Origin: a virus
Taxonomy: Duplodnaviria > Caudoviricetes
Virus record (IMG/VR): IMGVR_UViG_3300011335_000496
Coordinates: 1 to 36,551 of that record
Length of the DNA: 36,551 nucleotides
Strand: one strand, 5' to 3'
This document shows positions 1,497-36,481 of this stretch, in pieces; position 1 is the stretch's first letter, and each line of letters opens with the position of its first letter. The notes under the pieces were generated by a model that worked only from the letters and a program-made list of their open reading frames with translations, had not been told where the DNA came from and made no database searches. Made by a program: the position numbers and the translations under genes.

Positions 1497-1783
1497 TTGA
1501 TAGCGTCCCGCCATTGGCTTGTTCGCTTTGGCTTCTTTATCTCACCGTTTTCACTTAGGTATCTAGCGTGGTATTGGATAGCCCCTTGGCTTTTGTTTAG
1601 AGTCTCGGCGATGGTACGGGTCGGGATGCCGTTCACGATGAGCGTCTTTACAGCGTCTCGTAATAGCTCGATCTTGTCTTGGCGTTTGGTCGTTGCCATT
1701 AGGCTTTCTAGTTCCTCGGCCTTGTATCGCTCGCCAATAATTGTCTTGGCTTTTACCGATGAGGATATGAATGGTTCGCTCAT
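1493..1783 (-). CDS. HTH DNA-binding protein
   Basis: GIPTRTIAETLNKSQGAIQYHARYL is a classic HTH. Confidence 0.8.
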   Translation of the reverse strand: MSEPFISSSVKAKTIIGERYKAEELESLMATTKRQDKIELLRDAVKTLIVNGIPTRTIAETLNKSQGAIQYHARYLSENGEIKKPKRTSQWRDAIK

Positions 1784-2802
1784 AATAAAGTTATGGCTTT
1801 GAGGATTTCGTATGCGACTTGCGGGACGATGGCGTTGCCCAATCCTTTAATTCTGTCCACCCTATTGGATACCCCATGAGCCACTCGACCCATGCCGGAT
1901 TCAGCGAACCACTCCCCTTCATCTTTCCAAGTTCGGGGTGATTGCCCAGCATCACTTGCCTGTCGTTGCTCGTTGGAATTGGCCAGAGTCCCCTTGATGC
2001 TATTCTCCGAGCCACACGCCCCCCCTTGTCCAAACGCGCTAAGGATTCTGGATTCGTCCCGCAATCGTTCGCCTCCGATGCTCCCGGCGTGGGCCACATC
2101 ACAGACTCGTTTACTGCTCTCACTAAGCATCTGAACCGATTTTCCTTCGGATTCACATTTGCTGAATTGTCCATCGTTGGAGTTGGCCAAAGCTTCTTTT
2201 CCATTAAAACTACAACTCCACTTAACATCCCCGCAGTCCCATCCTTCCTCAACTGTCCCTTCCAGTCTCCTGCTATCGGAGTGGTCCATATTTCTTGCGA
2301 TAATCCAGACTCTATTCCTTCTGTGCGGGGCATCGACACCGCAAGCTGGAATAATGATCGGCTCGACTTCATATCCGCACGCTTCCAAATCAGAACACAC
2401 TTTGTCGAGTGCCAAGTTGATGATGCCAGCAACATTCTCACCAACGATCCAAGTTGGCCTTGCCTCTTGTATGACTCGGAGCATTTCTGGCCAGAGATAG
2501 CGGTCATCGTCCTTGCCTCGTTGCTTCCCGGCACAACTGAAAGGCTGGCAGGGAAATCCTCCTGTGAGAAGAGTGACTCCTCGGTATGCCGTGCCATCGA
2601 GTGCTTTGATATCTCCGTGGATTGGAACTTCTGGCCAGTGCTTTTTGATGACTGCTTGTGCGTATGGTTCGTTGTCGCAGAATCCAATCGTTCTGAATCC
2701 AGCCCATCGAGCGGCAAGAGCGAATCCCCCGATTCCGCTGAATAGATCGAGGTGGGTTGGTTCATTTGTTGTTGAGGTTATGTTCAAGATTTGTTGTGGC
2801 AA
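1780..2802 (-). CDS. DNA (cytosine-5)-methyltransferase, alpha chain
   Basis: Motif I DLFSGIGG, IV GGFPCQPFS, VI ENV, VIII HRRNRVWI, X LGNAIVP; no recognisable motif IX. Confidence 0.93.
   Translation of the reverse strand: MPQQILNITSTTNEPTHLDLFSGIGGFALAARWAGFRTIGFCDNEPYAQAVIKKHWPEVPIHGDIKALDGTAYRGVTLLTGGFPCQPFSCAGKQRGKDDDRYLWPEMLRVIQEARPTWIVGENVAGIINLALDKVCSDLEACGYEVEPIIIPACGVDAPHRRNRVWIIARNMDHSDSRRLEGTVEEGWDCGDVKWSCSFNGKEALANSNDGQFSKCESEGKSVQMLSESSKRVCDVAHAGSIGGERLRDESRILSAFGQGGACGSENSIKGTLANSNEQRQASDAGQSPRTWKDEGEWFAESGMGRVAHGVSNRVDRIKGLGNAIVPQVAYEILKAITLL
1791..2765 (-). CDS. Overlapping alternative-frame protein, probable beta chain of the C5-MTase (start may be the ATG at 2597)
   Basis: 324 stop-free codons inside the MTase; four W-[PT]-[TI]-P repeats; C-terminal LNPAWVEWLMGYPIGWT resembles motif IX. 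Confidence 0.7.
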   Translation of the reverse strand: MNQPTSIYSAESGDSLLPLDGLDSERLDSATTNHTHKQSSKSTGQKFQSTEISKHSMARHTEESLFSQEDFPASLSVVPGSNEARTMTAISGQKCSESYKRQGQLGSLVRMLLASSTWHSTKCVLIWKRADMKSSRSLFQLAVSMPRTEGIESGLSQEIWTTPIAGDWKGQLRKDGTAGMLSGVVVLMEKKLWPTPTMDNSANVNPKENRFRCLVRAVNESVMWPTPGASEANDCGTNPESLARLDKGGRVARRIASRGLWPIPTSNDRQVMLGNHPELGKMKGSGSLNPAWVEWLMGYPIGWTELKDWATPSSRKSHTKSSKP

Positions 2803-2819: not shown

Positions 2820-3080
2820 TTACAAATAATACTCCGCTACGCTTTTCCCGCTATTGGTCTTGATCGTGCGCTTGTATATGGGATGCCCCATCTTTTTGAG
2901 ATCGCATATGCGGCTGGCCAATCGAAAGCATCTGAACCATTCCAGAGCGTCGAGAGCCGTGATCGCTCGCCCTGTTTTCAAGTGGGCTAGGATTCTGGCG
3001 TTCTGGTCGTGGCCGTCACTCTGCTTTGGATGTGTGGTTCGGGCGAAGGGTAGCTCGTATTGTTCGGCAAGTAATATCAT
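2820..3080 (-). CDS. Winged-helix DNA-binding protein
   Basis: RILAHLKTGRAITALDAL...RLASRICDLKKMGHPI is a common phage wHTH pattern. Confidence 0.8.
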   Translation of the reverse strand: MILLAEQYELPFARTTHPKQSDGHDQNARILAHLKTGRAITALDALEWFRCFRLASRICDLKKMGHPIYKRTIKTNSGKSVAEYYL

Positions 3081-20866: not shown

Positions 20867-21538
20867 TCAATCCAGCTTTATCATTCCCTCAAAGTCGAAA
20901 ATGTTGTCAGCTTCCCACTCGTTCTTCTGGGGGAAGAATCCAGTGTTCTTTTCCTTCCTTACCGCTGAGGCCAAGATGATTGGGGTGCTATTGATCGCCC
21001 AGAACATATCTGCCCCTCGAATAGCCTTTGCCATGTCCTCAATGTTTGGGGCGGTGTAGGTAGAAAGCCCTTGGATTTTAATATCGGGCGGGGTCATAAC
21101 ATAGAAGTTTTCCTTGCCCATCTCAGCCCTTGCCTTTGTTATGATCTCAAGCGGGTTGTTGTAATACCCTTGGCTTATTCCAAAAGGAGCGACTAGGTTG
21201 TACTTCTCGGGAAGTTCCTTGGATGGCTTCTCATCCAGCTTGTCTAGGACGATGTTCGTCTTGTCTGCTCCTTTAATCTCGGCATGGCTGTAAACGAAGT
21301 CTGTCCAAGTCTTTTTGCTCTTTCGGTACTCCTCGTATTTGTTCGGCCATATCTCAAGGTCAATAATGTCTCCCTTGCTCCCCGCTTTTACATAGGAGAC
21401 AAGATCAAAGACAGAATGATATTGAGGCAAGCAATCAAAGAAAACCTCGTGGCCTTGGTCTGCTAGAAACTTTGCGGCGGGTAGGCATCGAAGGACATCC
21501 CCCAGCCTCTGCGAATATTTGATTGTCTTAGCACTCAT
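20867..21538 (-). CDS. Glycosyltransferase, GT-B (GT9-like)
   Basis: RLGDVL..LPA..FL...GHEV; AIRGADMFWAINS.PI.LASA. Confidence 0.7.
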   Translation of the reverse strand: MSAKTIKYSQRLGDVLRCLPAAKFLADQGHEVFFDCLPQYHSVFDLVSYVKAGSKGDIIDLEIWPNKYEEYRKSKKTWTDFVYSHAEIKGADKTNIVLDKLDEKPSKELPEKYNLVAPFGISQGYYNNPLEIITKARAEMGKENFYVMTPPDIKIQGLSTYTAPNIEDMAKAIRGADMFWAINSTPIILASAVRKEKNTGFFPQKNEWEADNIFDFEGMIKLD

Positions 21539-22295
21539 CAGCCACGCTTTTGTCCGTTATGAATGGCAAGTAATCCATCAGCCTAACTGGGCTTGTCGTT
21601 TGTTGTAGCCTTTCCCATCCTTCAACCAGTCCTTTGTACCCATAGAAATCCTGCTTAAATTGTACCTGTTCTTTCGTGGCGTAGGCGTAATGATCAAAGG
21701 TTAGACCCCAAGTTTCTGTGACTCCCCTCGGAATCATCAACGATTGAACATTCAGCTTGGGCGGTTCGTGGCTTGTGAAATGAATATCCCTTCCCCATCT
21801 CCACGCTCTGAACCACTCGTACCAGTTCGAGCCGAACCCCTCCCTAGTCACCACCTTCTTGTTTTGCCCTATATAATAATTGCAATGAAACTGCATCGCT
21901 CGTCCCTCTTCGCATCCTTTGAGATGTCCAAAAATAGCGTCTATCTGCTCGGCCTTCCACATCTCGTCACTATCAATCTGCATCACTACCCCTCCGTCCA
22001 CTCCTCGCAAGGCTTCGTTAATCATCGCCAGCTTCCCTTCAAAGGGTTTGGCTTGCCAATATACAGAGATGTTTTCCCCTCTAATGCTCTCAAGATATTC
22101 GTGTGTTCCGTCCACGCTTACAAAATTCTTATGGTATTTGTCGGGAATTTGCTTGCACCACCGAGTACATCCAAGAGGCTCGCTTACTCCCTCAACGATA
22201 TTCCATCTCCAAGGGATTTGTAGTTTCTTGAACTCTGCTAGGTGCTTCTCAATGTAGGGCATCCCATTGAGAACGATGGTGAAGATGGTCAGCAT
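21528..22295 (-). CDS. Glycosyltransferase, GT-A (GT2-like)
   Basis: FTIVLNG..YI, SVDGT.EYL, QIDSDE (DxD), FDHYAY. Confidence 0.85.
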   Translation of the reverse strand: MLTIFTIVLNGMPYIEKHLAEFKKLQIPWRWNIVEGVSEPLGCTRWCKQIPDKYHKNFVSVDGTHEYLESIRGENISVYWQAKPFEGKLAMINEALRGVDGGVVMQIDSDEMWKAEQIDAIFGHLKGCEEGRAMQFHCNYYIGQNKKVVTREGFGSNWYEWFRAWRWGRDIHFTSHEPPKLNVQSLMIPRGVTETWGLTFDHYAYATKEQVQFKQDFYGYKGLVEGWERLQQTTSPVRLMDYLPFITDKSVADEC

Positions 22296-22801
22296 TTTAG
22301 TCGGCCATAAATAACGCTTATCTCTGAGCAGAAAGAAACAGAGTCATATCGGTAACACTCAAACCCAATAGACTCGAACCAAGCTATAAATTCCTTTAGC
22401 CATAAATCAGAATAGTGAAGCTCAATAGCGATCTCCTTTAGTGTCCCTACATCTGCAATCTGCAACATCCTTGATTCCTCCCCCTCTATGTCGCATTTGA
22501 TATGAGTTATTAAGTTTTCCTTAATCAGTCCTTGGATTTGCTCTGATGATTCTATCCTTTGGCACAAGAATTTGCTCTCTGGATATTGCTTGGCCAGAGA
22601 TTCAATGTCCCCTTGGTTTGTGTCTATCCCTATGTAGAGCTCTGGCTTTTGTGATAGGAAGTATTTTGCTGTGCCGTTACCCTCTTGCCTTTCTGCCTCC
22701 GTCCAGAATCCACACCCCAAGTCTAGGACTCTTCCACCCTTAGCGTTGAGATGCTCCCAATGAATCTGCGGAGCTTCCGAATCTATTGCTCCCTTGGTCA
22801 T
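22289..22801 (-). CDS. Class I SAM-dependent methyltransferase (FkbM-like)
   Basis: VLDLGCG, IGID, IKCDIEGEE, IAIELH. Confidence 0.8.
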   Translation of the reverse strand: MTKGAIDSEAPQIHWEHLNAKGGRVLDLGCGFWTEAERQEGNGTAKYFLSQKPELYIGIDTNQGDIESLAKQYPESKFLCQRIESSEQIQGLIKENLITHIKCDIEGEESRMLQIADVGTLKEIAIELHYSDLWLKEFIAWFESIGFECYRYDSVSFCSEISVIYGRLKC

Positions 22802-23406
22802 AATTGGAAGATGGCCGCCCCATTCCTACAAGCCATATCGTCCCATAGCAGGGTTGCGGTTCGCTTTAGCCTTTCATAATTTGCGTAGTTCTTAATGTCG
22901 TTCACATCGTCCAAGGCTATGATTGCTTTCTCTGCTAGGAATGGTCGGACGCAACGCAGTTCTGATTCCCCAGAGAAAGGCGAGCCATCAATCAATACAA
23001 AGTTAAAATCTGCATTATGCTCAAAGTGAACATCCTCGATTGCGCTTGTCTTGTACTGGTAGGCGGTTTCAAGACATACATTGTGCCAGCCCAAGACTTG
23101 CTCTAGCGGGTACTGGTTAAGGTTGGTTTTGGTTGTTTGATAAAACTCTTCAATATCTTTCTTGTTCAGCCATAGGCTAGACAGGGTGGCTGTTCCATTG
23201 ATTGCTACTCCCCCTCTAGCAGATAGGTTCATTGAATGGCGGCCTATGCGGTCGGGATGATTCTCGATGCTGAATAGCTTCTTGGTTTTGATACATTGCG
23301 TGGAGCCGTCCCCTGTTCCCCCTCCAATCTCTAGCCCTACATCTAGCCCCTCGCTATATTTTTGAAGGGCTTGGCCGAATGAGTCGTTGCTAGTTATTTC
23401 TTGCAT
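22798..23406 (-). CDS. Class I SAM-dependent methyltransferase
   Basis: LEIGGGTGDGST, FSIE, VLIDG, IALDD. Confidence 0.8.
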   Translation of the reverse strand: MQEITSNDSFGQALQKYSEGLDVGLEIGGGTGDGSTQCIKTKKLFSIENHPDRIGRHSMNLSARGGVAINGTATLSSLWLNKKDIEEFYQTTKTNLNQYPLEQVLGWHNVCLETAYQYKTSAIEDVHFEHNADFNFVLIDGSPFSGESELRCVRPFLAEKAIIALDDVNDIKNYANYERLKRTATLLWDDMACRNGAAIFQL

Positions 23407-23648
23407 TTTGCCATCTCTACTAATGCCTTCTTAATCACATATTCAATCACCGCCTCAGGGTCTTGCTTCAACGCAAGCATCCCAGCTTCATACAATTCCT
23501 TCTTGGCTTTTTCGTCATAGGTAATATCGACATTCACGAACTTATTTTTGCAAGGGCGAGACTTGCCAAAGGTGATTATACCAAGCCCCTTGGTACTCTC
23601 TCCCTTTTTAGCTTTTCTACATCCAATTATTTGCTTTGCGCTTTTCAT
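23394..23648 (-). CDS. Small basic hypothetical protein
   Basis: Fills the gap between the GT and the MTase; start uncertain. Confidence 0.55.
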   Translation of the reverse strand: MKSAKQIIGCRKAKKGESTKGLGIITFGKSRPCKNKFVNVDITYDEKAKKELYEAGMLALKQDPEAVIEYVIKKALVEMAKCKK

Positions 23649-25269
23649 ATATTGCTTTCCCTTTCTCATAGAACTCTGGCTTATTATGATTCTTTAGCTG
23701 TTCGTCTGGGTTGCCCCCTGCAAACATAGGATTCTCGTGTTTGAATTGGATATGTCGAGCCTCAACTATTACTTGGTCTTGATATGCCCTGTCCGTGTGC
23801 TCGTTGTCTCCGTAAATACCATCGCTCTCTTGGTAGTCGGGGTGGAACATATGCCCTTGCTTCTTTAGCCTATCCTTTGTCAGAATCGCCATACAGAGCA
23901 GTTTGTCCGTCCTAAGCCCATCTGATACCGCTAGCACCTTCTCTGCCTTTGTATCCCCAATAGCGGTCGAAATTAGGGCATCCCAATGGCGGGGAGGAGT
24001 CCAATCATCCGACATTTGAATAATGATGTCCCCCTTGGCTATTTTTGCCCCTGCGTTCCAAGCATTAACGATTCCACCCGGATTCACTCGAATAGCTTGG
24101 TGCGGGGTGTAATCCACCTTCTCATCCTCATCCACCATAAACAACCACTCAACTTCTAGGGGTTTCTCAGCCAAGCACAACCATTGCCAGCGTCTTTGCC
24201 AAGCGATCTGCTGTCTGCCTCTAGTGGCGTGAATCACGCTTATTTTGGGGGCGGGTCTGCACTTGCGAATCTTTTCTGCCTCGCCTAGTTCCCCTACACA
24301 AACTGCGGCTGTCTCGTAAATATCCATCGCTTGCCAGTTGTAAACTGCTTCTACTAGATTCCAGTAGTGGAGTTTAGGGCGAGCAAGTGCCATCGCTGTC
24401 CTTGCCGCTCCGTAGGTTTTAATCCAATTCCCTTTCCCTGCCCAATGATTTGCAATATAAAAATAAGCCTCTCTCCTGTCTGGTTGTAGCCCTACCGCTT
24501 GCCCTAACCAAGAGAGCCTGTCGCTATCACCCACTATCCTCCCTAGATTGCAAAGCACATCGTAGCGGAGCGTGTCCTCTAGCTCTGGGAAAGATAAGGC
24601 TCGCATACTCGAATCAATGCACTTGTCGATTTGATTGCTTAGAAAGTATTCTTGGGCTTGGTAGTATAGACAATGCGGGGCAGTAGAAAGGGAGTCGGCC
24701 AATATGTTGAAGTTCCTTTCAGCACTTTTGGGCTTGTACCCATCGGGCTTGTGGATTCTGAAAATCTTATCCACCCCAATCGTCTTGTTCGGTTCTTTAG
24801 TGAGAAGCATCTCGTGAACTCGATTTTTCCAATAACAAGTTCCCTTCTTGCTTATCTCTTCTCGGAGGGGGATTAGGCCAGCGTTATCGACATTATATTT
24901 TAACGCCACTAAGTGAGCGTCTTTCTCGATGGCAAGGGCAATAGCCTCCTCGATCACCTTCTCCCCATCCTCGGCCATTACATCGTCAGCATCTACCCAT
25001 AAAGCCCACTCACAATCACAAGCCTCTAGCGCAGTATTCCTAGCCGTTGCGAAGTCGTCTATGTGTTCCCAATCAGTTCTTTTATTCTGGTAATGAACGA
25101 CTCTAGCACCGAGAGAAAGTGCGATCTCCTCCGTCTTGTCTGCCTTAGCTGACCCCCGAGCCATACATACAACAACTTCTTTTGAGATGGGCTTAAATGA
25201 TTCAATACAACGCTGGATGTATTTTTCTTCATTGCCAGCTATGAGGTAAACAGAAAGAGGATATTTCAT
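23617..25269 (-). CDS. Bifunctional glycosyltransferase GT2-TPR-GT2
   Basis: N-terminal LSVYLIAGNEE..I..C, DFATARN, WVDADD, RVHE; TPR-like helices; second GT KISVIHATRGR, MSDD. Confidence 0.9.
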   Translation of the reverse strand: MKYPLSVYLIAGNEEKYIQRCIESFKPISKEVVVCMARGSAKADKTEEIALSLGARVVHYQNKRTDWEHIDDFATARNTALEACDCEWALWVDADDVMAEDGEKVIEEAIALAIEKDAHLVALKYNVDNAGLIPLREEISKKGTCYWKNRVHEMLLTKEPNKTIGVDKIFRIHKPDGYKPKSAERNFNILADSLSTAPHCLYYQAQEYFLSNQIDKCIDSSMRALSFPELEDTLRYDVLCNLGRIVGDSDRLSWLGQAVGLQPDRREAYFYIANHWAGKGNWIKTYGAARTAMALARPKLHYWNLVEAVYNWQAMDIYETAAVCVGELGEAEKIRKCRPAPKISVIHATRGRQQIAWQRRWQWLCLAEKPLEVEWLFMVDEDEKVDYTPHQAIRVNPGGIVNAWNAGAKIAKGDIIIQMSDDWTPPRHWDALISTAIGDTKAEKVLAVSDGLRTDKLLCMAILTKDRLKKQGHMFHPDYQESDGIYGDNEHTDRAYQDQVIVEARHIQFKHENPMFAGGNPDEQLKNHNKPEFYEKGKAIYEKRKANNWM

Positions 25270-27866: not shown

Positions 27867-30800
27867 TCAAAGGAGATCGCCGTCCGCTTCTCGATATGAC
27901 TTCTTGACTTCACCGCCACCCGCCATCTTCAAGAACTTGTTGACTCTAGCCATCGCCCAAGCGTTGCGTGAGTTGGGCTTGCCCCCGCTGATGGTGGGTC
28001 GGAAGCTGGTCGAGAACGCCCCTGCTCCCCTTCGGAATACTTTCTTCAATGCTCCGATGCTAGGTGCGTTTTTGTTGGGGTGATCTTTCTTGAACTCGGC
28101 GATCTTGTTCTTCAAGGCTTCCTCGTTCTGCTCTGAAATCTCAATATCCCCAGCCTTGCTCCGGGTGGATGCCGTGCCTTCGGGGTTCTCCTTCGAGCCT
28201 TTGATTCGTTCCTTGGGAGGGGCGGGGGTTTGGGAGACTGGTCGGGCTAGTTCTTCTTTCTTGTCTGTGATCGGGCCACCAACAATCCAAGCATCACAAG
28301 TCCTTTTAGATGCACACTTAAAGTCAAAAATCTCGCAGTAGCCAAGATCGCCACCAATCGCTACTTCGTTCGCATCCTCTCCAATCCCCTTCTTGATACA
28401 TCCTAGAATCTTGTTCCTCTGATCAAAGGCCGCACAATTACCACAAAGCATCTTCTTTGCCGTGGGTACATCCCCCTGAAATTCGCCTGCCTTGGCTTTC
28501 CAGTAGTCCTCGTTAGGTTCGTTAGGATTGGCTGGGCCATAGTTCGCGTCGTCCACGGCTGTCTGCCTATTGGCTAGGTTGGTCTTTACATCTTGCGTTG
28601 CGATTGGACAAGAGGCTGGTTCGGCCAGTTCTTTCTTGTCCCTAGATTCCATCTGACCAACTACTTTTTTTGCCCAAGAATAGCCAGCATCCCCACCCCA
28701 TCCGTTCCACGCTTGCCAGCCCTTTCCTTGCTCCCCAAAGGTAGAGCCTTTCTTGTCCACTTCGTGCCTATCGAAAAAGGCTTTCATTCTTTTGATGGTG
28801 TCGGGTGATAGCTTCACCCCATTTTGTAAGTCTCTAGCCCTAGCAAGCCCAACAGGGGTCATTCCCCTTTGGCTGGGTGGTTTCGTCTCCCGCACTTCTA
28901 AGGCTCTTTTAGCGGCATCCCTAGCCCCTTGCGGGGGGCTGAAATCAATCCCCTCGTATTTGCCCAACTCAATGCCACCCATCATTCCGGCAATCAGCAT
29001 CTTAATTTCGTTCTGGTTTAGCTCTCGGACTACTGCTGTTTCGGTACTTAAATTATACTCTTTCAATACATTCTGCGGAACTTTCTTTCCTGCTTTTAGT
29101 GCATCCCTAACAATCTCTTCGTGATCTTTTTCTTTGCTCGCTAGTGTTCCGATGTATTTAGCCATCCGCTTTGCCGAGATTTCTTCTGGGTCGTTTTCAT
29201 ACATTTTATTAAAGTCGCCATCTCCACTAATAATTTTTTTAATATCTGCTTTCTTGATTTCCCTGCCAGTTGCCCTTCTCATTTGATGTGCAGATTCCTC
29301 GTAGAGCGTCCCAACCATTTGTGAATTTGGGTTAATAAAGATTGCTGGTTTTCCTTCAAATGTTCCAGAAGCACCGTCGAAAACAAAATCTTCGCCAGTC
29401 TTTATTCTTTCCCCTTTAACTACTGGGGTTCTCATAACCATCACTGGCACATCTAAAACTGGTTTTAGTAATTCTCTAGTTTTTTCGCCGTGAATTAAAT
29501 CACCAACATTTCCAATAATAGTTCCATCTTTTTGATTTTCTGCATCAATAAACTTTCTTGAAATTTGAGGGTGGAAAAATTCTTTCTTTGTAAGTTTCCA
29601 CAATTCAGGCGATTTAGTGCTTGCTTTGTTTGATTTGTCTATTTTTTCCTCACCCTCACCCCCTGCACAAGTATTCCCATCTTTGAATCCTCCGCTACCA
29701 GTCCCGCAATCTAGGCTTTTGAATGTTTTTTTAACTGGGCCTATTCTTCCCCTTTTAACTAAACTAGCCCTTAACTCTTTTGCCTCTTTCTCTACTCCAT
29801 CAATCGAATCTTTAATATTTTGTGGAAGTTTTGAATATCCTTCCTTATCAAATCTTTTCATTCCATTAAGTTCTGCAAAACTTTCTGTTACCGTTCGGTC
29901 TGCGGTTGATTCATCCCATACCTCACCTATCGAATACTTTATTCTTGTTCGTTTTGCCACCTCCTCGATTACCTTGGGATTGGCCTTTATTGCTTGAGTA
30001 AAGTTCCCCTTGGTCTCTTCCTTTGCGCCATCCCATATTCCGTGTCCAATTTCGTGATGTATTAGCCTATTAAATCCGTGCTTAACTCTATATTCGTCAC
30101 CAGAGGCGGCTATGGCCTCTGATGTTTTTGTGTGAATAATAAGATTGTTTTTGTTGTGCGCTCCATAATATGTAAAGCCAGACGGGGTTTTAGATGTTCC
30201 CCTAACCTCTATGTTATCTATTCCAGCGGTTCGCATCGCCTCGATTGTTTCTGGTTCAGACAATGCTTTTTCAAGGTCTGCCTTGGTTTTCTTTCCTAAT
30301 CTTTTTACTGCTCCGGGCGCTCCTTTTTGTAGTCCCCCCTCAGCGTCAGTTATTGTGAAGTCCCCTATTTTTGCTCTGACTCCCCTTCCATCCTCTGTAA
30401 ATTCTTGCCCATTATCCCCCCATTTTTGACCCGGTAAAACTTCTGGTGCAATTTCAACCTTTGCATTTTTAATTGATGGTTTTCCGCCACCCACCTCTCC
30501 TCCATCGCCACCGCCAGAGCAAGTATTTCCCGGCTTGAATCCACCAGAACCAGTTCCGCAATCTTCTAATTCCTTACTTTTTTTTTGAGTAGGTAATTCT
30601 ATTTCTGACTCGTCTATTGGCAATTCATCTTCTCTATCATCTTTTTGCAATTCTTCGGATGATGGCTCAATAGGTTCTTCTGGCGTGGCCTCATCGCCTC
30701 CACCTTCATCCTCGCCCTCTTCTGGCTTGTCGTTCTTTGTGGCTACTGCTTGGGGTGCGGGTGTTGGAAATTGTGGCTGAGGCGGTGTGGGTGTAACAAT

Positions 30801-32234
30801 ATCGGAAATGGTTTCTGGGGCTACGCCATACTTCTGTGCCAAGTCCTTAATCAGCTTGGCCTCAATCGCCCTCTGCCTCATTGCGCTCTCGAAGTCTTGG
30901 CCACGCTCGGCGTAGATGTCGGCGGCGGTGCGGAGTCCTGTCTTAAACTCGGATATGGCCGAGGCTGATTCTCTGCCCAAATCAATAGAGACATTCGCCC
31001 CGAAATTAAAGATGCCCTTGGTAGTTCTGCTTCCAGCGTTGTTCTCAATCAATCCCCTTGCAACTGCATCGGCAATTACGATGTTCTTAATTGGGCGAAG
31101 CACTTTATCGTCTAGGAGTTTCTGATATCTGCGGAAAGTTCTCCCCGCTTGTTGCATCTCAAGGCGAGCGGTCGGGCCACTCATAGCGGAAGGGTCAACG
31201 GCGAAGCTGTAAGGGATGCCCACTCCTAAGCAAATGTTGCGGAGTAGAATCTTGTGGAACTCTGCGAACGCTCCGCTTGGTCTGTTCGGGCCATCGGGGA
31301 ACTGAATCGTTTCTCCCGGTTCGAGATAACTGACCTTGCCCGATTCCATAGTTTCTAACTTGATTGCTTGGTTATCAAAATTGGTATCGGAGGTCAGATC
31401 ACTCAAGTCGGAAGCATTGTTGTTGTTTCTGAGAACGATTGCACTCTGCGAACTCGCTACCTTAGCTGACATCTTTTCAAAATTGATTATGTCGTAAATG
31501 TCTTGTGCATCGTTAATTGCAGTATGGAAAGCCGAGATGCCCCTGTACTGGTCGATGCGGAGCGGGTCGTATAGGTGGAACGCTTGGCTTGCGCTTACCT
31601 TTTGTTGGAAGGTGTAGGCGTTTCCGATAGATCGTGCGAAAATATCGTAGGCAGTAGGAGCACCAGTCTCTTGATCTATATGGATGCCCCCGATTAGATC
31701 GCTAGTGGTATAAACTTGGAAGGGGTTGCCGAGTCGATCTGCTTCGATGCCTTGTAGTTTTAGATCGCCATTGTTGTCTCTAATTAAAACGAATAAAAAG
31801 TCGCCGTCTCGGAGCATCGACATAACCGCAACTTGCATAAGGGTTGAGCCTGTATGCCTCGTTGAGATGTCGCAGTTATCCCACCATTCAGACCAGAACG
31901 ATTCGACATCTGTATTGACCGCTGGCTCGCTTGTTCGGGCTTGGTAAGAAACATTCGCCGCCGTGTGCGAGGCAAACTTCATTAGGATAGATCGAACTAG
32001 CCCAACATTCTCGGCCAAGTCCCTGCTCCGCTTCATTAGTTCAATACGATCATATCCAGTCCGATAGCTCTCTGCACCCTGCAACACGCTCGGGCCTTTG
32101 CGCTCCCGATTGTACTTGGTCGCATCGTAGTTGAAATGGGTCAGCTTTGCCCTTGCAATCGCTCTCTCAACTCCCGCTTGTGGGTTGACCAAGGCCACGG
32201 CTCGGTCGATTAGGTTAAGGGATATTTTCTTCAC
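27867..32234 (-). CDS. Lambda-family portal protein fused to about 950 aa of extra domains
   Basis: First ~480 aa are lambda gpB-like (RSRDLAEN, LRDGD, IEADRL, R.DQ.RG, YLEPGE); then a linker and five modules. Confidence 0.9.
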   Translation of the reverse strand: MKKISLNLIDRAVALVNPQAGVERAIARAKLTHFNYDATKYNRERKGPSVLQGAESYRTGYDRIELMKRSRDLAENVGLVRSILMKFASHTAANVSYQARTSEPAVNTDVESFWSEWWDNCDISTRHTGSTLMQVAVMSMLRDGDFLFVLIRDNNGDLKLQGIEADRLGNPFQVYTTSDLIGGIHIDQETGAPTAYDIFARSIGNAYTFQQKVSASQAFHLYDPLRIDQYRGISAFHTAINDAQDIYDIINFEKMSAKVASSQSAIVLRNNNNASDLSDLTSDTNFDNQAIKLETMESGKVSYLEPGETIQFPDGPNRPSGAFAEFHKILLRNICLGVGIPYSFAVDPSAMSGPTARLEMQQAGRTFRRYQKLLDDKVLRPIKNIVIADAVARGLIENNAGSRTTKGIFNFGANVSIDLGRESASAISEFKTGLRTAADIYAERGQDFESAMRQRAIEAKLIKDLAQKYGVAPETISDIVTPTPPQPQFPTPAPQAVATKNDKPEEGEDEGGGDEATPEEPIEPSSEELQKDDREDELPIDESEIELPTQKKSKELEDCGTGSGGFKPGNTCSGGGDGGEVGGGKPSIKNAKVEIAPEVLPGQKWGDNGQEFTEDGRGVRAKIGDFTITDAEGGLQKGAPGAVKRLGKKTKADLEKALSEPETIEAMRTAGIDNIEVRGTSKTPSGFTYYGAHNKNNLIIHTKTSEAIAASGDEYRVKHGFNRLIHHEIGHGIWDGAKEETKGNFTQAIKANPKVIEEVAKRTRIKYSIGEVWDESTADRTVTESFAELNGMKRFDKEGYSKLPQNIKDSIDGVEKEAKELRASLVKRGRIGPVKKTFKSLDCGTGSGGFKDGNTCAGGEGEEKIDKSNKASTKSPELWKLTKKEFFHPQISRKFIDAENQKDGTIIGNVGDLIHGEKTRELLKPVLDVPVMVMRTPVVKGERIKTGEDFVFDGASGTFEGKPAIFINPNSQMVGTLYEESAHQMRRATGREIKKADIKKIISGDGDFNKMYENDPEEISAKRMAKYIGTLASKEKDHEEIVRDALKAGKKVPQNVLKEYNLSTETAVVRELNQNEIKMLIAGMMGGIELGKYEGIDFSPPQGARDAAKRALEVRETKPPSQRGMTPVGLARARDLQNGVKLSPDTIKRMKAFFDRHEVDKKGSTFGEQGKGWQAWNGWGGDAGYSWAKKVVGQMESRDKKELAEPASCPIATQDVKTNLANRQTAVDDANYGPANPNEPNEDYWKAKAGEFQGDVPTAKKMLCGNCAAFDQRNKILGCIKKGIGEDANEVAIGGDLGYCEIFDFKCASKRTCDAWIVGGPITDKKEELARPVSQTPAPPKERIKGSKENPEGTASTRSKAGDIEISEQNEEALKNKIAEFKKDHPNKNAPSIGALKKVFRRGAGAFSTSFRPTISGGKPNSRNAWAMARVNKFLKMAGGGEVKKSYREADGDLL
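29659..30563 (-). repeat. Direct repeat pair encoding DCGTGSGGFK[PD]GNTC[SA]GG
   Basis: Copies at about 30511-30563 and 29659-29711, each heading one inserted domain. Confidence 0.9.
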
Positions 32235-35359: not shown

Positions 35360-36481
35360 TCATTTGGCAAGCGTGGCCTTCTTGTTGGTGAGGTTTTCCC
35401 ATCGCTTCACTATCACATCGCAGTAGTTGGGACTGATTTCAATAATTCTGGCCTGTTTCTTCATTCTTTCGCAAGCCAATACAGTTCCGCCAGACCCACC
35501 AAAAAAATCTATAACTATTTTTTTATCGGTATGAGATTTCAAGCAATATTCTATTAGTTCAGTTGGTTTAATTGTTGGATGAAATTTCTGTATTTCTCTT
35601 TTGCATTCGAAAACATTCGACCCATAAAAAGGATTCCCGTTGTCTCCCCAATACCAGATAAATTCGTGACAAGGTTCATATCTGTGCATTCTGTGTTGAA
35701 TTGGTTTAATCCAAACAATGCAATTCTTGGGGCTTCCTAGTTCTGATGTTGCGCCTAAAAACTTTTTTGCAGTTTTAGAGTCGCCACAAATATAGGCGGT
35801 GTCTACTCTAACATTTGCGATTGCGTCTTTAATGACTTGTGCAAATTCATCTCCATCGTTTTCTATCGATTCCCCATTTGATTTTTTAACATAGTTAAAT
35901 CCATATGGGGGATCGGTGAAAACCATATCTGCTTTTTCCCCATTCATCAGTTTCGCTACATCTTCTGCTTTTGTTGAGTCCCCACAAAGCACCCTATGTT
36001 CCCCAAGAAGCCACAAGTCACCCAGCTTGGTAATCGCATCCACCGGAACCTCTGGCACTTCGTCCTCCTCTATTGGATGCACGGATTCCATCATTTCGGC
36101 GATTTCATCCATAGCAAAACCCGTTACTTCCATATCTAGATCGCCTGTGTCGATTTCCTCTAGGATGTCTTTGAGCATAGGCATATCAAACTCTCCGCTT
36201 AGTTTGTTCAATGCGATGTTGGCCGCCTTCTCCTTCTGCTCGCTAAGATCGACCGCCCACACTTCCACCTCGGTCTTGCCCATCGCTTGATAAACTTTGA
36301 GCCTTTGATGGCCTCCAACCACATTTCCAGTTCGAGCGTTCCAAGTGATCGGCTGAATATTTCCAAACTCAGCGAGGCTTTTTGTTAGCCTTCCCATCGA
36401 CTCATCGCTGATGGTTCGTGGGTTGTATTTTGATGGTGAGATTTCAATGATTTTTTTAATTAGCAAGCAAGGGTAGTTCAT
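35360..36481 (-). CDS. ParB/Srx-domain plus N6-adenine/N4-cytosine DNA methyltransferase
   Basis: YNPR...VVGGHQRL ParB; HRVLCGDS, VFTDPPY, HPTIKP, DFFGGSG. Confidence 0.93.
   Translation of the reverse strand: MNYPCLLIKKIIEISPSKYNPRTISDESMGRLTKSLAEFGNIQPITWNARTGNVVGGHQRLKVYQAMGKTEVEVWAVDLSEQKEKAANIALNKLSGEFDMPMLKDILEEIDTGDLDMEVTGFAMDEIAEMMESVHPIEEDEVPEVPVDAITKLGDLWLLGEHRVLCGDSTKAEDVAKLMNGEKADMVFTDPPYGFNYVKKSNGESIENDGDEFAQVIKDAIANVRVDTAYICGDSKTAKKFLGATSELGSPKNCIVWIKPIQHRMHRYEPCHEFIWYWGDNGNPFYGSNVFECKREIQKFHPTIKPTELIEYCLKSHTDKKIVIDFFGGSGGTVLACERMKKQARIIEISPNYCDVIVKRWENLTNKKATLAK

Follow-up and report, generated by a model that had tools for sequence, protein, structure and literature searches.

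The stretch of DNA considered here, referred to below as the window, is a 36,551-base virus record (IMG/VR record IMGVR_UViG_3300011335_000496) in which Pfam and PHROGs scans recognise terminase, portal and major head genes. Its minus strand carries a gene, alpha, for the catalytic chain of a cytosine-5 (C5) DNA methyltransferase and, nested wholly inside this gene in its +1 frame, a second open reading frame (ORF), beta (Table 1). Alpha is 340 amino acids long, with a TTG start at 2802 and a second in-frame TTG at 2787. A preliminary description of this DNA had assigned motifs I, IV, VI, VIII and X to the main frame and noted the lack of motif IX, and this was borne out by Pfam, by alignment to M.HhaI and by motif scans. 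The chain contains motifs I-VIII and X but no motif IX, and motifs I, IV (with its PC), VI (ENV), VIII and X, which mark a C5 methyltransferase, are intact and in order. The Pfam match to PF00145 is limited to alpha residues 18-175, M.HhaI aligns across motifs I-VIII and the C-terminal end of alpha constitutes motif X. In PHROGs the protein falls in phrog_363, which is labelled DNA methyltransferase.

Beta begins with an ATG at 2765. No Pfam family matches it; in PHROGs it falls in phrog_1008, also labelled DNA methyltransferase. The chain is laid out as an unconstrained N-terminal part, a predicted docking element, four short units termed cassettes, each with a W-P-T-P-like head, and a segment resembling motif IX. 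The 324 stop-free codons previously reported for this frame were confirmed, as were the positions of the four cassette heads, but the chain does not end at the motif-IX-like ...GWT as had been thought: it extends 18 residues further, overlapping alpha motif X.

Table 1. Features of the methyltransferase locus and its flanks, in window coordinates.
Feature	Position	Strand	Basis or remark
Alpha ORF, catalytic chain of C5 DNA methyltransferase	1780..2802	-	PF00145 E 2e-42; phrog_363; M.HhaI E 1.6e-16
Alpha motif I (FSGIGG), S-adenosylmethionine binding	2725..2742	-	sequence; M.HhaI alignment
Alpha motif IV (GFPCQPFS), catalytic cysteine	2536..2559	-	M.HhaI alignment; invariant P-C-Q
Alpha motif VI (ENV)	2431..2439	-	invariant in 86 sequences
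Alpha motif VIII (HRRNRVW)	2305..2325	-	sequence alignments
Alpha motif X (LGNAIVPQVAYEIL)	1801..1842	-	alignments; alpha pN/pS 0.18
Beta ORF, 324 amino acids, alpha's +1 frame	1791..2765	-	phrog_1008 E 2.5e-43; selection; recoding test
Beta element over alpha motifs VI-VIII, helix and beta-hairpin predicted to dock on alpha	2337..2459	-	pN/pS 0.52 over VI-VII; models
Cassette 1 (WTTP head, 33 amino acids)	2190..2288	-	head 2288-2277; absent from natural variant in run X6
Cassette 2 (WPTP head, 31 amino acids)	2097..2189	-	LWPTP 2192-2178; recurs in other phages at several array positions
Cassette 3 (WPTP head, 37 amino acids)	1986..2096	-	MWPTP 2099-2085; diverged relatives only
Cassette 4 (WPIP head, 27 amino acids)	1905..1985	-	LWPIP 1988-1974; looks internally shortened
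Motif-IX-like segment in beta (LNPAWVEWLMGYPIGWT)	1854..1904	-	invariant L, P, M, G; beta pN/pS 0.36
Winged-helix gene	3080-2820		flanks the methyltransferase locus
Helix-turn-helix gene	1783-1493		flanks the methyltransferase locus on the other side

Conservation and selection in the two frames

Openness of both frames by chance is excluded. In 20,000 trials of synonymous recoding of alpha, beta never stayed open over its 324 codons, and alpha stayed open across the cassettes equally rarely (0 of 20,000) when beta was recoded; the longest stop-free +1 stretches in 14 other genes of the window span 36-104 codons. Both frames had been expected to stay open in homologues, and they do. A search with beta gave 597 confirmed viral loci, and among the 80 that were kept an IX-like motif was found by pattern in 74 and motifs IV and X within one alpha ORF in 72, the remaining eight being frameshifted (five), interrupted by a stop in alpha (two) or cut by the end of a contig (one). 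In order to avoid selecting for beta, the N-terminal half of alpha was also used as the only query, and 62 of 80 loci could be parsed from motif VIII to motif X (18 unparsed). Over this interval the alpha frame is free of stops in 60 of the 62, the +1 frame in 54 and the third frame in 5; none of the 62 has a canonical motif IX in alpha, and three of the eight loci with stops in the +1 frame are poly-G frameshifts of the kind described below. Contigs from bacterial and archaeal genomes of many phyla gave 80 loci that partly overlap the other sets (55 distinct and parsed, 22 unparsed, 3 duplicates), and both frames are open in 54 of the 55. Contigs matching the window locus itself are present in other sequencing runs (X5, X6). 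The two-frame methyltransferase is therefore real and widespread.

At E <= 0.001, 31,491 protein clusters are hit by a profile of cassettes plus motif IX. Among the 150 best, which carry 1-10 heads each, 137 have IX alone, 2 have IV and IX, and 8 have X after IX on a single chain (7 recognised by pattern and 1 by eye). Cassettes, IX and X stand on one chain, in a split of the M.AquI type, in P0136, P0137, P0147, P0155, P0200, P0225, P0229 and P0252, and P0215 combines motifs IV-VI, cassettes and IX. Many close relatives have an ATGAATG or GTGAATG at which the starts of the two chains lie four bases from each other. The beta ATG is kept in the window and in the loci closest to it (L001, L081-L084, L087), in which alpha has only an upstream TTG.

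Purifying selection, which the preliminary description had proposed to assess segment by segment, alternates between the frames. It was measured as the ratio of non-synonymous to synonymous polymorphism (pN/pS), pooled over pairs from 63 colinear cores. Alpha is the constrained frame over the catalytic motifs, with values of 0.16 for motifs I-III (beta 1.38), 0.23 for IV-V (beta 1.17), 0.39 for VI-VII (beta 0.52), 0.18 for VIII (beta 0.81) and 0.18 for X (beta 1.05), and beta is the constrained frame over the IX stretch (0.36; alpha 0.78) and over the cassettes. In the 17 cassette families that have at least three distinct members, filtered at 70% identity, pN/pS is 0.04-0.29 in beta and 0.95-5.95 in alpha (undefined in one), and the pooled changes fall 357 times at the third codon position of beta and 84 times at that of alpha. 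Values above 1 in the free frame arise because the frames overlap and do not denote positive selection. The first 95 or so codons of beta show no constraint of their own (pN/pS 1.2-1.4) and look like a passenger, whereas the element over VI-VIII, the cassettes and IX are maintained. One cassette family (family 0) is never the last of its array (21 of 21) and yet has a beta pN/pS of 0.19, which indicates that inner cassettes are maintained too. The role of motif IX would fall to a segment of beta that is under selection, is predicted to pack on motif X and precedes motif X within one chain in 8 of the best 150 proteins.

It had been proposed that alpha is merely kept open across the cassettes. 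In keeping with this, alpha shows no amino-acid constraint there and is simply free of stops, although in some close relatives one cassette is read in alpha.

The cassette array and its variation

The cassettes share the consensus W-P-T-P-x-A-x-D, followed by a loop rich in G, K and R and then by L-x-x-x-V-x-M; two cassettes carry T-L or T-I in place of T-P. A terminal WATP in beta was considered as a fifth head and rejected, being a by-product of the alpha codons for LGNA in a stretch where the beta pN/pS is 1.05. The bodies of the four window cassettes, earlier described as unrelated, are indeed unrelated to one another but are not unique, since cassettes 2, 3 and 4 have relatives elsewhere; for cassette 1 no clear relative was found among 272 proteins compared. 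Cassette 2 is present in 8 other loci, in which it stands first, in the middle or last, with 77-88% DNA identity over about 100 bases and matches that end near its borders. Cassette 4 resembles a common cassette that has lost an internal part, and it may be inactive.

Across 151 distinct parsed loci, 140 of them in frame, 313 cassettes (median 41 residues) were sorted into 130 families, the single-linkage clustering having fused two unrelated cassettes into family 5 by way of an unsplit double cassette (L202). The in-frame loci contain one cassette in 30 cases, two in 47, three in 59, four in 3 and none in 1. Variation of cassette number by in-frame insertion or deletion had been anticipated, and both number and order were found to vary by in-frame changes. 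Where the core DNA of two loci is at least 95% identical, 78 of 91 pairs differ in their array and 13 have the same array, with 20 pairs sharing no cassette; the window has one cassette in common with L081, to which its core is 96.9% identical. A contig from run X6, of low depth (3.7) and with 61 letters on its short side, joins 2186 to 2286 and so skips 99 bases, with the result that exactly cassette 1 is gone and the frame is kept. Arrays change faster than the core, and the array consists of tandem exchangeable units between motifs VIII and IX. The DNA of the cassette head is strongly conserved and would thereby offer a point for recombination.

A run of G lies shortly after motif VIII in 17 of 213 distinct loci. 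In 15 of these it comprises 10-12 G, precedes the first cassette and lies about 29 bases beyond the point where motif VIII starts (L001, L003, L005, L009, L011, L084, L088, L095, L099-L101, L103, L165, L197, L201), and in two it lies inside the first cassette (L210, L216); the window itself has no G run after motif VIII. Nine of the 17 loci are in frame and eight are out of frame, as against 194 in frame among the 196 without a run. A glycine run is present in 73 of 120 homologous proteins, which end with IX (32), with X (24) or with neither (17), and run X12 contains contigs with 10 G and with 11 G that come from slightly different strains. The length of the tract determines the frames, and it looks like a site of phase variation, with sequencing error as a possible alternative. 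The first cassette in this group is one base off and is read in alpha when both chains are complete (L003, at 2978-3080, L088, L099, L103, L165, L197). Seven distinct copies of the alpha-read cassette show 10 synonymous and 0 non-synonymous changes in the W-P-T-P frame, which suggests that a cassette can act from either chain and that alpha is not always only a spacer. In L001 a 5-base duplication and one extra G put the first cassette back in beta. Another G run, of 9-10 bases, lies within the first cassette of L006, L104, L207 and L212, all four of which are in frame.

Pairing of the chains and the role of the cassettes

The complex of alpha (327 residues) with the last 211 residues of beta was modelled, as the preliminary description had suggested, and pairing of the chains by way of motifs IX and X is predicted. 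The complex reached an interaction score (ipSAE) of 0.86 against 0.00 for the best of three controls, the score mark applied being one that 116 of 157 solved pairs and 2 of 215 mismatched pairs attain; the runs agree in at least 55% of contacts, with a partner confidence (predicted local distance difference test, pLDDT) of at least 48. The surest predicted contacts are those of beta VEWLMG with alpha motif X, as would be expected of a motif IX, and residues 4-44 of the beta fragment (chain 2) also contact alpha in the model. Modelled alone with AlphaFold2, beta has a mean pLDDT of 60.5 and a predicted template modelling score of 0.23, with the cassettes unstructured and the VI-VIII hairpin at a pLDDT of 75-87; a fold search with this model returned nothing at E <= 0.001. 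In a natural frameshift fusion from L009 only the I-VIII part folds, so that the fusion says nothing about the cassette; the fold of the relative's I-VIII part matches M.HaeIII and M.HhaI. Alignments A3, A5 and A6, in which beta fragments were misplaced, were left out. That the enzyme is made of two chains is very probable.

The target-recognition domain of C5 methyltransferases lies between motifs VIII and IX (PMC5944983). The cassettes sit in this interval, in which alpha has no constrained alternative. A profile was built from the seven positions that follow T-P, the head itself being excluded, and was applied to C5 methyltransferases of Bacillus phages, namely SPR, phi3T, rho11s and H2 (K02124.1, M13488.1, X05242.1, M72412.1), and related enzymes. 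Windows at T-L, T-I or T-V took first place in six of the enzymes (SPR, rho11s, H2, phi3T and two related ones) and third place in a seventh. Five distinct such sites in SPR, phi3T and rho11s ranked 3/205, 1/205, 4/205, 1/176 and 2/269; these ranks were equalled by 0 of 1,500 column permutations and 0 of 7 shifted profiles and were little altered by masking of the first column. The literature mentions a TL dipeptide that is conserved in recognition domains (PMC2790894).

We favour the reading, which we consider rather likely, of a two-chain C5 methyltransferase whose beta chain contributes motif IX and four exchangeable cassettes as probable alternative DNA-recognition units. The likeness to recognition domains points to cassettes that probably do act as recognition units, and position, selection and the short motif likeness together make it fairly likely that the enzyme has several specificities at once. 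Both chains would be made from one mRNA from nearby starts, and beta would dock on alpha with IX against X and the helix-hairpin against VII-VIII. One cassette at a time would then set its T-P where the TL of ordinary recognition domains sits, and the loop behind T-P would read the major groove. New arrays would be generated by recombination at the shared head sequence, while alpha would have to remain stop-free across each inserted cassette in order to reach motif X. A phage so equipped would methylate several different targets and would evade several of the restriction enzymes of its hosts.

A number of points weigh against this reading. The five ranked sites, which we take to be the TL dipeptides of the Bacillus phage enzymes, were chosen after the first profile result and come from related enzymes, and some other T-[LIV] windows rank poorly with the T-P profile. 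Comparison by hhalign of a cassette plus IX with the SPR enzyme was not significant (probability 0.3), three beta profiles (A2, A4, A7) gave only chance hits and no methyltransferase among solved structures, and profile comparison gave no significant match of the IX-like segment to canonical motif IX. Each repeat of the Bacillus enzymes has about 25 residues before its TL, whereas the variable sequence that precedes T-P in single-cassette betas is short, and loop 1 of M.HhaI counts for more than its loop 2 (PMC2790894); the anatomy is therefore not the same. The pairs pooled in the selection analysis are not independent, and its figures cover cassette families that include window cassette 2 (beta pN/pS 0.09) but not window cassettes 1, 3 and 4. 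In two of the 80 loci found with beta, L017 and L022, alpha is interrupted by a stop ahead of motif X. The cassettes are not placed in the complex and are absent from its confident interface residues, their pLDDT being about 50-60 in the model of beta alone and below 50 in the L009 fusion, and the complex score may stem from resemblance to solved enzymes with a single chain, these chains being two halves of such an enzyme. The recognition domain of M.EcoHK31I, an enzyme with a nested beta chain, is described as lying in alpha (PMC2836561, PMC3404938). The favoured reading as a whole is drawn from sequence and models. The combination of two frames with swappable cassettes that had been proposed for this locus is thus upheld as regards the frames, selection, shuffling and predicted pairing, with the cassettes as putative readers of DNA bases.

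Of the other explanations, the best placed is a two-chain enzyme in which one cassette at a time, for example that beside IX, is active and the others form a silent store, to be brought into use by recombination. Most loci make do with 1-3 cassettes (30 of 140 with only one), window cassette 4 looks shortened and silent recognition domains occur in the Bacillus phage enzymes, yet family 0, never last in its 21 occurrences, and family 1, last in 1 of 18, have beta pN/pS values of 0.19 and 0.23, and we consider a silent store rather unlikely. It is also unlikely that the cassettes are basic, flexible modules that lend non-specific affinity for DNA or bind host or phage proteins, with one relaxed specificity for the enzyme. 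Such modules would account for bodies rich in G, K and R that are unstructured in all models, and large phage C5 enzymes with relaxed CC specificity have been reported (PMC5537653); they would not account for at least 130 distinct, tightly conserved families in the recognition interval between VIII and IX (PMC5944983) with a TL-like context, nor does alpha have a constrained region that could supply recognition in their place.

A third explanation is that adjacent cassettes work together, each recognition unit being formed by one cassette's tail and the head of its successor, so that specificity is set by the junctions. This is suggested by the Bacillus repeats, in which TL is internal and flanked by sequence on either side, while exchange here is at the T-P head; since single-cassette genes are common and the same cassette may stand alone, first, in the middle or last with different neighbours, junction units are improbable. 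Synthesis of a single polypeptide by programmed ribosomal frameshifting is highly improbable. The window alpha has only TTG starts, the ATG belonging to beta, and relatives have slippery G runs after motif VIII, but the collection of I-VIII, IX and X into one chain needs two opposite shifts and leaves alpha needlessly open across the cassettes, where it nonetheless stays open; moreover, the starts in relatives are separate and in tandem, a G run is lacking from the window at that point and M.EcoHK31I is made as two chains (PMC2836561). Accident or assembly artefact, which may hold for the unconstrained 95 N-terminal codons of beta (pN/pS 1.2-1.4), is refuted for the cassettes and IX by the recoding trials (0/20,000), by conservation in viral, metagenome and genome collections, by selection on beta and by the X5 and X6 contigs, and is left with a negligible probability.

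To return to exchangeable recognition units, a wider proposition may be put forward tentatively, as one that we think somewhat less likely to be right than wrong: that the 31,491 matched clusters, with up to about 10 cassettes per chain, form a very large phage family with a combinatorial anti-restriction system, in which cassettes of 30-50 residues each have their own target, enter an overprinted frame by recombination at their heads, act from either chain and in some lineages are turned on or off, or moved from chain to chain, by slipping poly-G tracts. If this were true, no smaller portable specificity modules would be known for DNA methyltransferases. Were each cassette to have its own target, the cassettes would amount to a natural collection of compact specificity modules for cytosine methyltransferases, useful for methylation engineering and for explaining how phages keep pace with restriction-rich hosts. 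The locus is in any case a clear example of overlapping genes between which selection is divided by segment, even as modules are added to and dropped from one of the two. On this evidence, what is annotated in many phages as a methyltransferase gene would be half an enzyme, and cloning of a recoded alpha would destroy beta.

Setting of the locus and comparison with known systems

The sequencing runs that match the window best are labelled mostly as river, lake or freshwater metagenomes; RNA runs carry only small shares of window words (0.04-0.16), and neither window protein, alpha or beta, has an exact match in the protein collection searched. The methyltransferase locus sits amid small minus-strand genes. 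No stand-alone cassette gene was found elsewhere in the window genome, and no restriction endonuclease was recognised in Pfam and PHROGs scans of 34 window proteins. Palindromes are strongly avoided in this genome, with observed against expected counts of 0/69 for ACGT, 0/61 for GCWGC, 1/44 for CCWGG, 1/35 for GGWCC, 8/81 for CGCG and 16/115 for CATG, the median ratio for non-palindromic 4-mers being 1.02. Avoidance of palindromes is a mark of hosts rich in restriction systems; it points here to restriction pressure but cannot name the targets of the methyltransferase. An orphan methyltransferase with several changing specificities would fit an anti-restriction role. In a contig of a related phage from run X10 the whole methyltransferase gene (1783-2822) is replaced by 731 other letters, so that the gene is itself a replaceable module.

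Elsewhere in the window, a second methyltransferase (35360-36481, minus strand), with a ParB-like domain and an N6/N4 methylase, adjoins the small terminase gene. The portal protein (27867-32234, minus strand) has 1,455 amino acids, about 900 of them beyond the portal domain, with weak matches to phrog_2859 and DUF5824, and two glycosyltransferase-family-2 genes (21528-25269, minus strand), possibly for capsid glycosylation, directly follow the major head gene. Beneath both methyltransferase genes the opposite strand has a stop-free frame of 267 codons (1942-2745, plus strand), which is probably a by-product.

The nested layout, in M.EcoHK31I, and tandem recognition domains, in SPR and phi3T, are each known, and their combination is apparently undescribed in the open-access literature. 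No description of shuffled cassettes in a nested frame was found in that literature (subscription papers, REBASE notes and bioRxiv supplements lie outside this scope), and keyword searches for nested methyltransferase genes gave nothing in the available text of PMC10460002, PMC11954522, PMC6070908 and PMC3025963. A pair of the PHROG 363/1008 type is present in Paenibacillus phage Bloom (BLOOM_56/57), in which both overlapping genes are annotated as DNA cytosine methyltransferase and the second has three WxTP heads; the available text of the Paenibacillus phage survey (PMC6070908) does not discuss the overlap or the cassettes. M.AquI (CYCGRG) likewise consists of two polypeptides (PMC3404938), and 8 of the best 150 beta relatives show a split of its type; the window differs in keeping motif X on alpha and in nesting beta in the other frame.

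The Bacillus phage enzymes are single-chain C5 methyltransferases with tandem recognition domains (PMC8936443). Like the window enzyme they are phage-borne and have tandem exchangeable units of some 30-50 residues between VIII and IX, and the residues that follow T-L in them are similar to those that follow T-P here. They differ in having one chain in one frame, with TL inside the repeat rather than at its head, and their multispecificity has been shown while that of the window enzyme is putative; no profile match between the cassettes and these enzymes is significant.

M.EcoHK31I (from E. coli HK31; YGGCCR), which was not recognised in plasmid searches, is the closer parallel in layout. The available accounts describe two chains, with beta wholly within alpha in another frame, motifs I-VIII and X in alpha and IX in beta, and N-terminal deletions of its beta chain weaken chain association (PMC2836561), which fits the docking element predicted here. 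By eye, and without scoring, P0130 and P0155 have a pre-cassette W-x-x-x-G pattern like the primer-readable part of the M.EcoHK31I beta chain. The analogy drawn in the preliminary description thus holds for the nested frames and for motif IX in beta, but the recognition domain of M.EcoHK31I is assigned to alpha and the layouts are not identical. Other differences are that in the phage both chains start together and the gene is an orphan. M.EcoHK31I has one specificity, with recognition in alpha, whereas here the variable region of alpha is unconstrained, save in the relatives with an alpha-read cassette, and it is beta that is constrained and bears a shuffled array. This contrast raises the question of whether the recognition domain of M.EcoHK31I has been assigned to the right chain.

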